A DNA stretch of 64,000 nt from Alphaproteobacteria bacterium (GCA_965227515.1 CBDDFZ010000001.1:1-64000); one strand, 5' to 3'. Positions 130 to 5,394 are shown, numbered from the stretch's first letter. Notes: a model not told the origin generated them from the sequence alone. Numbers and translations are program-made.

Positions 130-1230
130 CTATCCGCCCAGCACACCCATCGTGCGCACGATCAACTCGGTCTGGCGGCGGGTGCCGGTTTTCGCGAACA
201 TCGCCTGAAGCCGGTTGCGTGCCGTGTTGCGGCTGATGCCGAGCTCGGCAGCGGCAATGGCAAGATCGACGCCTGCGCTCAACGCCTCCAGCAACCGCAC
301 CTCGGCGGCGGAGAATCCCCACAGCCGAGCCAGCGCCCGCTGCCGGCCGTCGCGCCGCTGCGCCGGATTCCATACATACACCAAGGCCGCGACTGGCATC
401 GGCACCGCTCTGGCCGTTGGATTGACCGGCAGGACCTGGACCATCAGCGGCGCGCTGGCTTGCCCGGCGGCAATCAGCACCTCGGCGCTGTCGCCGGCGA
501 TTGCGGTACCGATCGCGGCCGCCAGCCGCGCCGCCGTCGAGCGGTCGGCACCTTGCAATGTGCCGTCCTGAATGGTCAGCGGGCCGCCCGCGGCCAACAG
601 CGCCTCTGCACGGGCGTTGAGTTGCAGGATGGTCCCCCTATCGTCGAGCGCAAGGATGGCCCACGGCAAATGGTCAGGCGTCCAACCGTTGCGGCCGTCC
701 GCGTGCAGCTTGACGTCCGTGCGGTTTGCCACCCGCCACGCATTGCCCAGGGCGCGGGACGACTGTCGGAACTGATCGATCTTCTCAGGCTCGGGATGGC
801 CGTGCCTGATGTCGAACTCAAGCGAGTGAAGCAGGGAAGTTTCGCCCTCGTCGTAGACGCGCGAGCCAATGAAATAGCGCAGGCCCATCGACCGACGCAG
901 CCAATCATAGAACTCGTGCCGATTGATGGTGGCGAGGTCGACGACCAGGCTGTCGTAGACGATATGGCCGGCGGCATGCCGCGCGCTGTAACGCACGCGC
1001 GGGTCGATGGCGTGAATATGCTCCAGATACTCTTGCCGACCGTCCTGGATTTCAGGTGTCAGCCAATTGGATAAGGCGCCGGTCTTGCGATTGAGTTCGA
1101 ACGTACTGCTGCCGGCCGCGCCAAAGGCCTGACACAGGCCAACCAGACCCGCCTCGACGGCAGCCTGGCCCAACTCGACCTCGAACATCGTCTCATAGGC
1201 GGCCGCTAGCTTCTGGTGGTCAACGGCCAT
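130..1230 (-). CDS. LuxR-type HTH transcriptional regulator with N-terminal GAF/PAS-like sensor region (paralog 2)
   Basis: C-terminal FSAAEVRLLEALSAG...LGISRNTARNRLQAMFAKTGTRRQTEL HTH; PAS-like LPWAILALDDRGTILQLNARA. Confidence 0.85.
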   Translation of the reverse strand: MAVDHQKLAAAYETMFEVELGQAAVEAGLVGLCQAFGAAGSSTFELNRKTGALSNWLTPEIQDGRQEYLEHIHAIDPRVRYSARHAAGHIVYDSLVVDLATINRHEFYDWLRRSMGLRYFIGSRVYDEGETSLLHSLEFDIRHGHPEPEKIDQFRQSSRALGNAWRVANRTDVKLHADGRNGWTPDHLPWAILALDDRGTILQLNARAEALLAAGGPLTIQDGTLQGADRSTAARLAAAIGTAIAGDSAEVLIAAGQASAPLMVQVLPVNPTARAVPMPVAALVYVWNPAQRRDGRQRALARLWGFSAAEVRLLEALSAGVDLAIAAAELGISRNTARNRLQAMFAKTGTRRQTELIVRTMGVLGG

Positions 1231-1245
1231 GGCGATGCCGCGATA

Positions 1246-2367
1246 TCAGTTGCCCAGCAACCCGCCGGTCAGGGCGAGCAGTTCGGTTTGCCGCCGGGTA
1301 CCGGTCTTGGCGAACATGGACTGCAATTGGTTGCGTGCGGTGTTGCGCGAAATGCCGAGTGTCGCGGCGGCGGTTGCCAGATCGCTGCCGCCGCCGATGC
1401 GCTCCAGCAACTGGCTTTCGGCCGGCGTGAATTTCCACAGCTCCGCCAGGACCTGCGCGCCGCCGCGGGCGTGCTGCGCCGGGTCGCGAACATACAGCAC
1501 CACCGCCACGCCCATTGGCGCCGCCAATGCCATGGGGTTGACCGGGATCGCCTGGACCACGAGTGGATGAGACTCCGGGCCGCGATGCAGCAGCGCCGAC
1601 CCGTTGACACCGCCGACCGCCCGGCGGACCGCGTCGCGCAGGTCCTCGTCGGCGGCACGGTCGACGGCTTCGATCGTGCCATCGGCCAGCCTCAATGCAT
1701 CGCCGTCGGCAAGCAACGCTTCCGCTCTGCCGTTCAACTGCACGACGCGACCGGACGTCGCGAGTGCGAAGATCGCCCACGGCAGGTGATCCGGCGTCCA
1801 CGATGACGGAACAGTCCTGCCTTCGGCTCGCGATGTCGCACGCGCCGCTCGCCAGGCGTTGCCCAGGGCACGGGACGACCGCGCAAACGCCTCGATCACC
1901 GGACGTTCCGGATGGCCGTACCTGTCCGTAAATTCGATCGAGTGCATGACGGAAACGTCCCCGTCATCGTAGAGCCGTGAGCCGAGGAAGTAACGCAGGC
2001 CATCGCTGCGGTAGAGCCAATCGTAGAACTCGTGCCGCCCGATGGCGCCGCGGTCGATGAAACGAGCTTCGTAGGCGACGTGTCCCGGCGCATGGGCCAG
2101 CGAGAACCGCATGCGCGGATTGATGGCGTTGAGATGGTCGCTGTAGCCATCTCCACCCGCGCGGAGCGACCGGCTGGTCCAGTTGCGAATTTCTCCCGTC
2201 CGCCGGTTCAGCTCGAAGATGACGGATCCGGCGCCGCCGAAGGCATCGTTCAGGGCCTCCGTAGCCTCGCGGAACGACGACTGTCCGGCGGAAGCCTCCA
2301 TCATGGCTTGATATGCCCCAATCAATCCCGCCGAGTTGGGGCCACCAGACCTGTATGCGTCAGACAA
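1246..2367 (-). CDS. LuxR-type HTH transcriptional regulator (paralog 1)
   Basis: Shares RHEFYDWL, GLRYFxGSRxYD, WTPDHLPWAI and GISRNTARNxLQxMFAKTGTRRQTEL blocks with 130-1230. Confidence 0.85.
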   Translation of the reverse strand: MSDAYRSGGPNSAGLIGAYQAMMEASAGQSSFREATEALNDAFGGAGSVIFELNRRTGEIRNWTSRSLRAGGDGYSDHLNAINPRMRFSLAHAPGHVAYEARFIDRGAIGRHEFYDWLYRSDGLRYFLGSRLYDDGDVSVMHSIEFTDRYGHPERPVIEAFARSSRALGNAWRAARATSRAEGRTVPSSWTPDHLPWAIFALATSGRVVQLNGRAEALLADGDALRLADGTIEAVDRAADEDLRDAVRRAVGGVNGSALLHRGPESHPLVVQAIPVNPMALAAPMGVAVVLYVRDPAQHARGGAQVLAELWKFTPAESQLLERIGGGSDLATAAATLGISRNTARNQLQSMFAKTGTRRQTELLALTGGLLGN

Positions 2368-2436
2368 ACGGAAATATCCCTACAACAGACAACGCGACCC
2401 ACCTTGGAACAATCACGCACTGCGTGGACGCGCACA

Positions 2437-2466
2437 GTACATTTGTACCATGCCGCCCAATTGACC
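2437..2466 (+). promoter_or_regulatory. Palindromic box GTACATTTGTAC followed 12 nt later by TTGACC (-35-like)
   Basis: Same box and spacing recur at 2972-3001. Confidence 0.6.
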
Positions 2467-2554
2467 GTCCTTCAATCCCGTTGATCATCAGCCAATAGAG
2501 ATTGCCGCTTGGGAGTCACGCGGCGAGACACGGCTGGAAGACGGGGGACCACCT

Positions 2555-2938
2555 ATGAAGACCGCGCATGCAGCGTGCACCATTATTGTCACCGCGAGCT
2601 TGCTGGCGGGTTGCGCCCAGATCACGCGATCCCAATTGCCAGCGTCAACGATCACCCACAATGGCGAGACGTTCGAAATCCGGACTGAGCTCGGAAATCA
2701 GCACAATCCAGGTGCGTACGTCGAAACCTGGTACGTCAAGACCGCGGGCGGGCTCTACCAGCAATGCGCCTCGGTGGACGTTGGCCTCGATTCCACGGAA
2801 GAGGCAAAGGCAGCTAGCGCCGCCGCCGGGCGCGAGGCCTGCTACGAGATGTATGCGCGAACGCTCGACACCCCAGGCTCAGGCAGCAACGAGGGCGGCG
2901 TCAGCAATAGCGGCGATGCCGGCGGCCACAATCATTGA
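2555..2938 (+). CDS. Small predicted lipoprotein with conserved C-terminal GSNEGGVSNSGDAGGHNH tail
   Basis: GGGGGA RBS; lipobox LLAG-C; tail identical to that of 3079-3474. Confidence 0.8.
   Translation: MKTAHAACTIIVTASLLAGCAQITRSQLPASTITHNGETFEIRTELGNQHNPGAYVETWYVKTAGGLYQQCASVDVGLDSTEEAKAASAAAGREACYEMYARTLDTPGSGSNEGGVSNSGDAGGHNH
2882..2938 (+). repeat. 57-nt direct repeat, copy 1 (encodes the shared tail)
   Basis: Differs from 3418-3474 only at GAG/GAA, AAT/AAC, CAT/CAC and TGA/TAA. Confidence 0.95.
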
Positions 2939-2971
2939 TTGCTCGCCTAACAAATGCGGCCCGAACCTAGG

Positions 2972-3001
2972 GTACAAATGTACCTTCTCAAGCGATTGAC
3001 A
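2972..3001 (+). promoter_or_regulatory. Palindromic box GTACAAATGTAC followed 12 nt later by TTGACA (-35-like)
   Basis: Box is the exact reverse complement of 2437-2448, with identical spacing to TTGAC. Confidence 0.6.
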
Positions 3002-3078
3002 CCCCCCCAATTTCATCGACGATGAAACTCCAGATCACTGTGCTTAGGCAGTAATCGGTGTGATTGGGGGACTATAGT

Positions 3079-3474
3079 ATGAAAACAGGAATTGCGGTGT
3101 GCGTAGTCATGAGTGGTCTTGCGATTTCGGCAGCAAAATGTCCAACGGGAGAGGGGCAGGAGACCATACAAAGTGCCGCACGGGTCTTTACGGGTGCGGT
3201 CGAAAGGGTCGAATCGCGGACCGCATTCGTAAACGGCGATCAGCTGACGATCAGGGATATTTGCTTCAGCGAATGCAATTCTGTGATTGGTGAATGGAAG
3301 ACTTACGTTCGTGACAAGAATGGCGAATTTGTTGCGTGCACTGGGATAGGCACCGACGAGGATTGTCACGCAACATGGGCCGCCTCCGGCCGGTCCTCCG
3401 GGCCTGGTGTCAGTGGCGGCAGCAACGAAGGCGGCGTCAGCAATAGCGGCGATGCCGGCGGCCACAACCACTAA
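3079..3474 (+). CDS. Small exported Cys-containing protein with conserved C-terminal GSNEGGVSNSGDAGGHNH tail
   Basis: GGGGGA RBS; MKT plus hydrophobic signal ending AAK-C; visibly AT-richer codons than its neighbours. Confidence 0.75.
   Translation: MKTGIAVCVVMSGLAISAAKCPTGEGQETIQSAARVFTGAVERVESRTAFVNGDQLTIRDICFSECNSVIGEWKTYVRDKNGEFVACTGIGTDEDCHATWAASGRSSGPGVSGGSNEGGVSNSGDAGGHNH
3418..3474 (+). repeat. 57-nt direct repeat, copy 2 (encodes the shared tail)
   Basis: See 2882-2938. Confidence 0.95.
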
Positions 3475-3483
3475 GGCGAACCG

Positions 3484-4803
3484 ATGGACAGGCGCCAGTT
3501 CCTGAGCGCGACAGGCGCCGGCGCACTTGGGGCCGGCGCACTAGGGGCCGGGATGGCGGGCTGCACGATCCCGCTGGCCCGGCGCCCCACGACGCCGGAC
3601 CCCGGGATCGGCGCGCCATCGCCCGGACCGGCCGCCTTCATCCCGTCCTATCGCATCGACGACGCGCTATTCGATGGCGTGCCGTTACGCAACCACCCGG
3701 ACGTGTCGCGCAACCTGCCGGCGGGTTATGACGGCCCCGCCGTCCTGCTGACCCGGCTGGCGCTGGACGACGCCACGGCCCGCACGGCGCTGATGCCCGT
3801 CGGCGGACATGGCATCTCCATCTCGCCGGACGGGCGCACCGGCATATTCCACTGCCAGAGCGCCACCCATACGATCAGTTTCGATCCCGCCACGCTCGAC
3901 GTCATCGCGGCCACCGCACCGTTCGCCGATGCACGGGTCGGCGGCGGCCATGCCAAGTTCCTGCCCGACGGCGCGGCCTTCCTGGCCGCCGAGCGCGCGC
4001 CCTATGGTCCCTATCTGGGCGCGGCGGAGCGTCATTTCGGCCGCATCGTCATTCGCGATACCGAAACGCTGCGCGAGATCGACAGCTTCTCCAGCCACGG
4101 CGTCGCCCCGCACGACATGCAGGTGTTCGACAACGGCCGCCACGTGCTGGTCGCCAACTACGGCAGCACCCAGCCGGCATCGTGGACCAGCGACCCGGAG
4201 ACCGCCCGCATCGTCGCACCGCGCGCCACCATCATCGAGGTCGCGAGCGGCCGGCTGGTCGACACCATCGCCGGCACGCCGGGCGAGACCGAGCTGCGCC
4301 ACCTGGCAATCGCCGACGATGGCGCGATTGCCGCGATCCAGGTGCGCACCGGCGCGCCAGGCGGGTCGCCGGCCACCTATGCCGGGCTCGCCGCGCGCGA
4401 CCGCACGCTCTTCAACGGCGACCGGGAGATGTTGTCGGCGCACATGCTGGTGCGGTCCGGCGATCGCGCGCGCGAGGTCATCGCCGCCGACCCGATGGCG
4501 ATGCGCCAGGGGCTGTCCATCGCCTACGACCCGTTGGGCCACCAGTTCATGGCCACCCACCCCAGCGCGCATACGGTGGTGGTGGTCGATGCCACCAGCG
4601 GCGACATCGCCGGCGTCGTGGACACCCGCACCTGGGGCCTGGCCTATCCGTGCGGGCTGGCGCTGCACCCGGACGGCCAGACCTATCTGGTCGCCGGTGC
4701 CTTCGCCGACGTGATCACGTTCGACCGGCTGACCCACCTGCCGGTGGAGGGCCGCAGCTACCGGCTCGACGGATTCCAGCACAGCCACATGGTGGTGGCG
4801 TAG
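3484..4803 (+). CDS. Tat-exported lipoprotein, DUF1513-like beta-propeller
   Basis: MDRRQFL twin-arginine signal plus MAG-C; motifs GGHG, GGHAxF, SHGVAPHD, LVANYG and LRHLA resemble DUF1513 proteins. Confidence 0.7.
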   Translation: MDRRQFLSATGAGALGAGALGAGMAGCTIPLARRPTTPDPGIGAPSPGPAAFIPSYRIDDALFDGVPLRNHPDVSRNLPAGYDGPAVLLTRLALDDATARTALMPVGGHGISISPDGRTGIFHCQSATHTISFDPATLDVIAATAPFADARVGGGHAKFLPDGAAFLAAERAPYGPYLGAAERHFGRIVIRDTETLREIDSFSSHGVAPHDMQVFDNGRHVLVANYGSTQPASWTSDPETARIVAPRATIIEVASGRLVDTIAGTPGETELRHLAIADDGAIAAIQVRTGAPGGSPATYAGLAARDRTLFNGDREMLSAHMLVRSGDRAREVIAADPMAMRQGLSIAYDPLGHQFMATHPSAHTVVVVDATSGDIAGVVDTRTWGLAYPCGLALHPDGQTYLVAGAFADVITFDRLTHLPVEGRSYRLDGFQHSHMVVA

Positions 4804-4971
4804 AAGACCTGCCCTCCCGCCGATCCGGCGTCGCGGCGCTAACGGATGCGCTTGCCATCGGACCCGGCGCAACGCTCTGACATCCACAATCAGTGAACCG
4901 CAGGCCGATTTGTGGCGACACAGTGATCAGGCGGTCCAAGAGCCGCCACAATCACTGAGGAGGCCCGAACA

Positions 4972-5394
4972 ATGCGTCACGCACTCACCGCCTTCATCGC
5001 AGCAACCGCCTGTTCCTGGCTCGTAACCGGCCACGCGATCGCCGATCCCAGTCAGACGCACGTCACCCCACCCAGGACCGTTGCGCCGGATTTCGAGATT
5101 TCACCCGACTCGCTGCCGCCGCGCCTGGGCAACTATCGGGGCAATGAGATCATCCTCATCCCGCTGGACCCTGTGCCGATCGATCCGCCGACGCTGCCGT
5201 CGCTGCATGCGGTGGAAATGGTGTTGGGCCTCGACGGCCTGAAAGGCAGCGTCATCTGCTGCGACGCTAACGACAATTGCGAGCCCCTGACTCTGCCCGG
5301 CACGTGCCCTGCCGGCACCATCACCAGCAATTGCGACGACGACAACAACTGCGTCGACGAAGACCTCGACAAGGATGACGACACCAGCGACTAG
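4972..5394 (+). CDS. Secreted hypothetical protein, Pro-rich middle and six-Cys acidic C-terminal domain
   Basis: GAGGAGG RBS; Sec signal ending AIA-D; CC-x5-C-x8-C-x8-C-x5-C followed by a D-rich tail. Confidence 0.7.
   Translation: MRHALTAFIAATACSWLVTGHAIADPSQTHVTPPRTVAPDFEISPDSLPPRLGNYRGNEIILIPLDPVPIDPPTLPSLHAVEMVLGLDGLKGSVICCDANDNCEPLTLPGTCPAGTITSNCDDDNNCVDEDLDKDDDTSD

Follow-up and report, generated by a model that had tools for sequence, protein, structure and literature searches.

Among the described systems to which the locus presented here can be likened, CTERM tags are served by dedicated sortases, as in the pairs PEP-CTERM/exosortase and GlyGly-CTERM/rhombosortase. A propeller that reads a short C-terminal motif is found in beta'-COP, whose propeller face recognises KxKxx-COOH where it forms the free C-terminus of different cargo proteins. 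Seven-blade propellers exported by the twin-arginine translocation (Tat) pathway and carrying a His-ligated metal in the hub include thiocyanate dehydrogenase and NosZ, the latter being served by the lipoprotein copper chaperone NosL. The locus lies in a window of 64,000 nucleotides from an Alphaproteobacteria bacterium (GCA_965227515.1, CBDDFZ010000001.1:1-64000), by which we mean the whole stretch of DNA that was analysed. It contains two genes, A and B, for exported proteins with an identical C-terminal tail, followed by a gene for a Tat-exported beta-propeller related to the DUF1513 family (Table 1). The clade of this propeller is inherited with neighbouring exported proteins whose one constant is a Gly-rich tail that closes with His or Asp. 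The recurrence of such tails on unrelated lipoproteins beside the propeller in other bacteria points to an undescribed tail-and-propeller partnership.

Regarding DUF1513 (PF07433) itself, our literature search returned one functional account, a preprint which proposes from mutant fitness data that the canonical operon takes part in iron uptake, with the gene order EfeO-like/DUF1111/EfeO-like/DUF1513 (10.1101/072470). Searches on a tail-propeller pairing, on poly-Gly lipoproteins, on imelysin with a propeller, and on poly-Gly ends with a C-terminal His gave nothing relevant, as judged by their listings. The propeller of the window resembles the canonical family in its match to PF07433 (70.0 bits over residues 104-408, with a cut-off of 27; 65 bits in the genome scan), in its Tat-type signal, in its seven blades, and in most of the His residues of the hub. 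However, its 65-70 bits compare with 328 bits for the canonical copy of the same genome, which lies elsewhere (C1:917 kb), keeps most of the hub His, and has an imelysin gene (148.9 bits) upstream. The first-pass annotation, made from the DNA alone, had remarked that the imelysin and di-haem genes which usually accompany DUF1513 are absent here, and they are: the neighbours scanned, namely a LuxR-type pair, A, B, a Cys-rich open reading frame (ORF), FTHFS and sarcosine-oxidase-like genes, include neither imelysin nor the di-haem DUF1111. The window propeller further differs from the canonical family in belonging to a rare subfamily, with orthologues in 8/401 genomes sampled from the class and 2/401 sampled from the phylum, and in having a tail-bearing neighbour.

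Genes A and B both terminate in GSNEGGVSNSGDAGGHNH followed by a stop codon, as had been noted beforehand. The DNA identity between them has a sharp onset at GGCAGC (position 2882 in A, 3418 in B) and continues through the stop codon, with 53 of 57 nucleotides shared, and the remainder of the two genes aligns at a near-random level. The four differences are silent, again as first reported: three are synonymous transitions (GAG/GAA, AAT/AAC and CAT/CAC), and the fourth replaces one stop codon by another (TGA/TAA). The first-pass annotation had taken this as selection on the peptide rather than on a DNA repeat, a reading that stands in part. In its favour, the substitutions that accumulated in the tail, counted between A and B and between A and its counterpart in X2, a sequencing run from a roughly 95%-identical relative whose contigs were compared with the window, are synonymous in five out of five cases, where 21% of the possible single changes would be so (probability about 4e-4 under a uniform model). 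Against it, 15 of the 18 codons and all eight fourfold sites are identical in A and B, which is not explained by peptide selection alone and argues for recent copying or conversion of the DNA. To judge by these sequences, the tail DNA was recently copied or converted and has been constrained since. Within its own genome, this tail has no carriers besides A and B.

The comparison with X2 also separates the tail from the body that carries it. A 2,606-nt contig of X2 aligns with the window over 2400-2938, after which 498 unalignable letters take the place of 2939-3414, a segment comprising the spacer, the signal peptide of B and its body. The alignment restarts at 3415, 3 nt before the tail of B, and extends into the propeller gene up to 4454. 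In X2 the tail of B has lost one Gly codon (at 3456) and its stop codon has changed from TAA to TGA, and the tail of A differs at two sites, both synonymous. Partner bodies are exchangeable, whereas the tail type stays with the propeller gene from lineage to lineage. For gene A itself, the codon changes against X2 number 11 synonymous and 6 non-synonymous, which supports its being a real coding gene, with a variable patch at codons 50-58.

The claim that the bodies of A and B are dissimilar is nearly true, as their near-random DNA alignment indicates, and needs one correction: without their tails, the proteins still give a weak BLASTP match (25% identity, E 0.007), of marginal significance. 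Given that the ribosome-binding site (GGGGGAC) and the first residues (MKT) are also the same in both genes, it is plausible from the sequences that they derive from an old duplication, their middles having diverged past recognition. Neither protein matches Pfam or NCBIfam. For A, a word search of 5.8 billion proteins found no homologue and the ESM Atlas returned nothing above 0.80. For B, the same word search found A alone (E 1.0), phmmer, run exhaustively against 1.84 billion representatives, gave one match (E 1.4e-4) through a short GEWKxY repeat motif, and no homologue was found in the genomes of 60 relatives. Both had been credited with an export signal containing an early Cys, and both have one. 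By eye and with a simple pattern, which is how lipobox calls were made for A, B and the propeller, the LLAGC of A fits the lipobox rule. The signal peptide of B has a Lys at position -1 (SAAKC) and does not fit it, so that B is probably a soluble exported protein and not a canonical lipoprotein. The region of both genes (2400-3450) has a G+C content of 51-62%, compared with about 70% around it.

Table 1. Features of the locus, in positions of the 64,000-nt window
Feature	Position	Strand	Basis
Gene A, 127-aa predicted lipoprotein, relatives none except via the tail	2555..2938	+	ORF; lipobox LLAGC
Tail of A, GSNEGGVSNSGDAGGHNH	2882..2935	+	DNA and protein comparison of A with B; 2 synonymous changes against relative X2
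Gene B, 131-aa probable Sec-exported protein, orphan body, non-canonical as a lipoprotein	3079..3474	+	ORF
Tail of B, GSNEGGVSNSGDAGGHNH	3418..3471	+	DNA and protein comparison of A with B; X2 alignment restarts at 3415
Propeller, Tat signal, DUF1513-like, seven-blade beta-propeller, 439 aa	3484..4803	+	PF07433, 70 bits; AlphaFold2 (AF2) model
R1, predicted tandem PAS/GAF-like domains and LuxR-type helix-turn-helix (HTH)	130..1230	-	Sub-cut-off Pfam matches, fold model
R2, tandem paralogue of R1, 52% identical	1246..2367	-	ORF, sequence comparison
Secreted 140-aa protein, Cys-rich, acidic end	4972..5394	+	ORF; adjoins the module

The link between tail and propeller was assessed in 28 orthologous loci besides the window, collected from genome samples and from scans of genome contigs and metagenome contigs, with 71 canonical DUF1513 loci as controls. 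The orthologues, with 36-41% identity over the full length, were present in 5/11 genomes in the family of G054 and in 1/3 in that of G086. In the genome-contig scan, a single propeller sequence as query gave no match and a small alignment (A2) did. Tail genes were sought in six frames with the pattern G{5,}X{0,2}[HD]-stop, which occurs in 10 of the 28 orthologous loci (186 kb) versus none of the 71 canonical loci (555 kb), nor anywhere in the 5.5-Mb genome of the window. The corresponding Fisher p is 8e-7, a value that overstates the case since the loci are related to one another. Of the 19 loci flanked by 1 kb or more of sequence on each side, 8 have a tail gene. If the last residue is left free, 11 Gly-run ends are found in the orthologous loci, ending in His (6), Asp (4) or Gly (1). 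A softer rule (Gly/Ser/Asn-rich with a His or Asp end) added no tail genes in the 18 tail-less loci and picked A and B alone in their own genome.

What these neighbours have in common is the tail. The carriers are exported, with a lipobox Cys, as read by eye, in 8 or 9 of the 10, and their tails vary from 5 to 16 Gly. Their bodies are short and highly charged in four loci (L039, L040, L047 and L048), and elsewhere belong to a globular type of roughly 180 aa (family f52), to a FecR-domain protein (L049) and to one other kind (L122). The nine that were scanned have no common Pfam family, FecR in L049 being the lone match. Immediately upstream of the propeller gene stand five of the tail genes, at spacings between a 44-nt overlap and a 57-nt gap; two others converge on it at 20-23 nt, and three are found 0.4-2.3 kb downstream. 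The earlier proposal that the tail is portable and goes with the propeller is supported by these unrelated carriers and by the body exchange in X2 with the tail kept. Genome G086 has two propeller paralogues, 68% identical (L039 on C57 and L040 on C58), each with a poly-Gly-His lipoprotein as neighbour, and at one of these loci a second neighbour ends in GGGGGAGGGGGAGGDG. At locus L031 (G341, C48), the match is limited to query residues 39-278 and split over overlapping ORFs in different frames, so this may be a pseudogene.

A DNA pattern applied genome-wide, (GGN)5-SAY-TRR, which encodes (Gly)5-His/Asp-stop, gives the same picture in three genomes, G054, G086 and G407, where it has one, two and one sites, respectively, every one of them adjoining a propeller gene. 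In G190 the single site lies 3 kb from the propeller, and three genomes with propellers outside the tail clades (G106, G384 and G341) have no site anywhere in the genome. The tail also follows the phylogeny of the propeller. In a maximum-likelihood tree of 24 subfamily rows and the canonical paralogue, built without the apparently broken L031 and without four truncated rows (L036, L050, L123 and L125), the smallest starred clade that holds the window (98/92) comprises L047, L048, the window and four f52 rows, with a tail neighbour in 7/7. A second starred clade (L122, L039 and L040) has one in 3/3, and the other rows have none, except for L049 (at 2.3 kb). The placement of L121 and of the canonical outgroup is unreliable, both having very long branches.

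The propeller gene starts with an ATG 9 bp after the stop codon of B, and its first description as a Tat-exported DUF1513-like propeller agrees with the RRQFL twin-arginine motif and the PF07433 match; it has in addition a possible lipobox, GMAGC, which we take to fit a relaxed form of the rule. The hydrophobic part of its Tat signal (3514-3555) is a short direct repeat, GAGALGAGALGAG. In a contig of another run, X5, 15 nt are missing at 3520, and therefore the length of the Tat signal peptide differs between strains. The AF2 model, made from eight orthologues, has seven blades (pLDDT 80.9). Its fold matches include the YVTN S-layer domain (Z 32.4), lactonases, hydrazine synthase beta, selenium-binding protein and BtuG, along with NosZ (2iwf, Z 28.6), thiocyanate dehydrogenase (5f75, Z 26.4) and WD40 proteins (about Z 26). 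These searches thus returned generic seven-blade propellers, with no functional class singled out, and by sequence search no solved structure is related to DUF1513 or to this propeller beyond generic propeller repeats. The likeness to NosZ and thiocyanate dehydrogenase is therefore one of fold, at scores no higher than those of the generic propellers, and differs from true kinship in that the window propeller shows no sequence relationship to either and has no nos genes. With beta'-COP, of which PDB entry 2ynp appears in the fold list, the analogy is one of logic only, a propeller reading a short C-terminal motif, beta'-COP being a eukaryotic cytosolic WD40 protein.

Six His residues of the propeller (His109, 156, 210, 273, 433 and 435) are invariant both in the eight orthologues and in a set of 23, alongside Glu170, Arg171, Glu270, Asp134 and Asp306. 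In the DSSP listing of the model, the six His stand in or just before strands assigned as innermost, in five blades, and they probably line the central hub.

On these grounds we propose a two-part periplasmic module, to which we give a probability of roughly 40%. Its first part would be the Tat-exported, DUF1513-like seven-blade propeller, with a hub probably lined by the six invariant His. Its second part would consist of at least one Sec-exported partner, mostly lipid-anchored, in which the conserved element is a flexible Gly-rich tail with a His or Asp end. A and B would be the two partner proteins of this genome. The propeller would recognise the tail, whose Gly stretch, free of side chains, would let the terminal His or Asp and its free carboxylate reach the His-lined hub, where docking would probably occur via a bound metal, completing or exchanging a metal site. 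As a result, the propeller may be tethered to its membrane-anchored partner, or metal may be passed between the two. A more far-reaching version is doubtful, though it deserves mention: the oligo-Gly-His/Asp tail would be a portable address, recombined onto fast-changing exported proteins, and the Tat propeller clade would read or process it via the hub metal. If such a tag-and-reader system were true, it would provide the first molecular role for part of the DUF1513 family, and if the tail is a portable address, this would explain why orphan neighbour bodies are replaced between close strains and would constitute a new kind of C-terminal tag in bacterial envelope biology. The partner feature of this propeller clade offers a concrete and cheap handle on DUF1513 function.

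Several observations weigh against the proposed module. The tail gene is absent from 18 of the 28 orthologous loci, some of which are on short contigs. The tail of A and B has short Gly runs only and fails the poly-Gly pattern itself, so that it is only loosely of the poly-Gly type, and grouping it with the other tails in one class is a matter of judgement. Concerning the propeller, the clustering of the six His in space is deduced from the strand list of the model, and the hub metal is a conjecture. Furthermore, tail-linked and tail-less propellers are not told apart by any column of the alignment, and neither are those with His-ending and Asp-ending tails, so no tail-specific site is visible. 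The tail type is not confined to propeller loci either. In G403, one of three pattern sites adjoins the propeller and two are elsewhere. The pattern is present in 59/401 genomes of the class, and a reversed-pattern control is of similar order. Twenty sites sampled from propeller-less genomes, that is, genomes with no propeller match in the class sample search, comprised four major facilitator superfamily (MFS) transporters, two c-type cytochromes, some plausible genes and several spurious frames. Since these transporters, cytochromes and other carriers occur in propeller-less genomes, the tail type is not exclusive to the propeller, even though its adjacency to the propeller is non-random. Ending in poly-Gly-His may be a more general and as yet unexplained habit. 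The MFS transporters (L140, L141, L145 and L151), from other Alphaproteobacteria, end in GGGGGH, and the secreted cytochromes (L149 and L150) in six to eight Gly plus His. The two distant sites of G403 belong to lipoprotein-like ORFs (L132 2477-3088 and L133 2569-3075) with long Gly runs plus Asp.

The same data would be accommodated nearly as well by an enzyme and its substrate, a reading that we regard as unlikely and in which the propeller trims, modifies or ligates the Gly tail or the residue that ends it. A and B would then be precursors or cargo, processed much like a sorting signal or the precursor of a ribosomally synthesised and post-translationally modified peptide (RiPP). The linkage between tail and propeller applies to it equally, the variation in tail length (5 to 16 Gly, with one Gly codon lost in X2) speaks for it, and the invariant His, Glu and Asp would suit a catalytic site. 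One tag on many bodies, with extra tagged lipoproteins elsewhere in G403, is moreover reminiscent of tag-and-sortase arrangements: as in the CTERM systems, a short C-terminal tag sits on dissimilar exported proteins, one beside the cognate gene and others dispersed. However, the Gly tails, unlike CTERM signals, are followed by no membrane helix or basic stretch, and their neighbour is a soluble propeller and not a membrane protease. The scanned neighbours include no peptidase, ligase, radical-SAM or transporter family, and the fold matches are to generic propellers. As for RiPPs, the partner bodies are structured or long, unlike leader peptides, A and B bear Sec or lipoprotein signals, and the scan of the neighbours brought up no known family of maturases, proteases or transporters.

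Somewhat less probable still is an ordinary tandem duplication, in which A and B would be diverged paralogues with 3' ends homogenised by gene conversion, the tail a neutral disordered extension and its adjacency to the propeller a matter of chance. The weak alignment between the bodies, with their common ribosome-binding site and start, is what this would predict, as is the near-identity of tail codons and fourfold sites; GGC-type repeats expand easily, and poly-Gly ends are seen on unrelated proteins elsewhere. Neutral tails, however, would not concentrate by the propeller as these do (10/28 versus 0/71, and all sites in three genomes), would not have His or Asp as last residue 10 times out of 11, and would neither survive the replacement of the body nor gather silent changes alone. 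Finally, it is highly improbable that the tail acts as a signal that is released, or as a modified peptide, matured by the propeller and sensed by the tandem LuxR-type regulators, even though R2 and A are transcribed in opposite directions from a 187-bp spacer and R1 has, at the level of fold, PAS/GAF domains of ligand-binding type with a LuxR-type HTH, given that there is no sign of tail release and that R1 homologues, in the other propeller genomes searched, are present in a minority and lie on other contigs than the propeller.

This last point concerns the regulators themselves, which had been presented as controlling or sensing the system, a role that the comparisons do not support. Of 5 propeller-bearing genomes searched, 2 have R1 homologues, never on the contig of the propeller, and among 17 orthologous loci only L048 has one near it, 3.5 kb off and behind other long ORFs. 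R1 and R2 are accordingly neighbours of the module and no conserved part of it. Their arrangement, R2 being divergent from A, suggests that they may regulate A, B and the propeller, at most as local regulators. All Pfam matches of R1 and R2 are below cut-off (PF00196 with 13.4 bits, the cut-off being 23.5), and PF03472, the autoinducer-binding domain, is not among the Pfam scan matches for R1 or R2. The model of R1 (pLDDT 85.3) gave Foldseek matches to phytochrome PAS/GAF domains and to VqmA, TraR, RhlR and SdiA, where the last four cover a ligand-binding domain plus a LuxR-type HTH, so at this predicted fold level the pair appear to be real LuxR-type regulators. Their family, which is small and uncurated, consists of proteins of about 365 aa and numbers 44 clusters, mostly from metagenome-assembled genomes of marine or soil Alphaproteobacteria, one of which carries PF00196.

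Downstream of the propeller gene, the predicted secreted protein that adjoins the module is rich in proline in its central part, carries a cluster of six Cys and is strongly acidic at its end. Pfam does not match it, and the ORFs of the 17 orthologous loci that were compared include no relative. Its 7 synonymous versus 2 non-synonymous changes against X2 nevertheless argue for a real gene. In run X5, the spacer before this ORF (4800-4903) is replaced.

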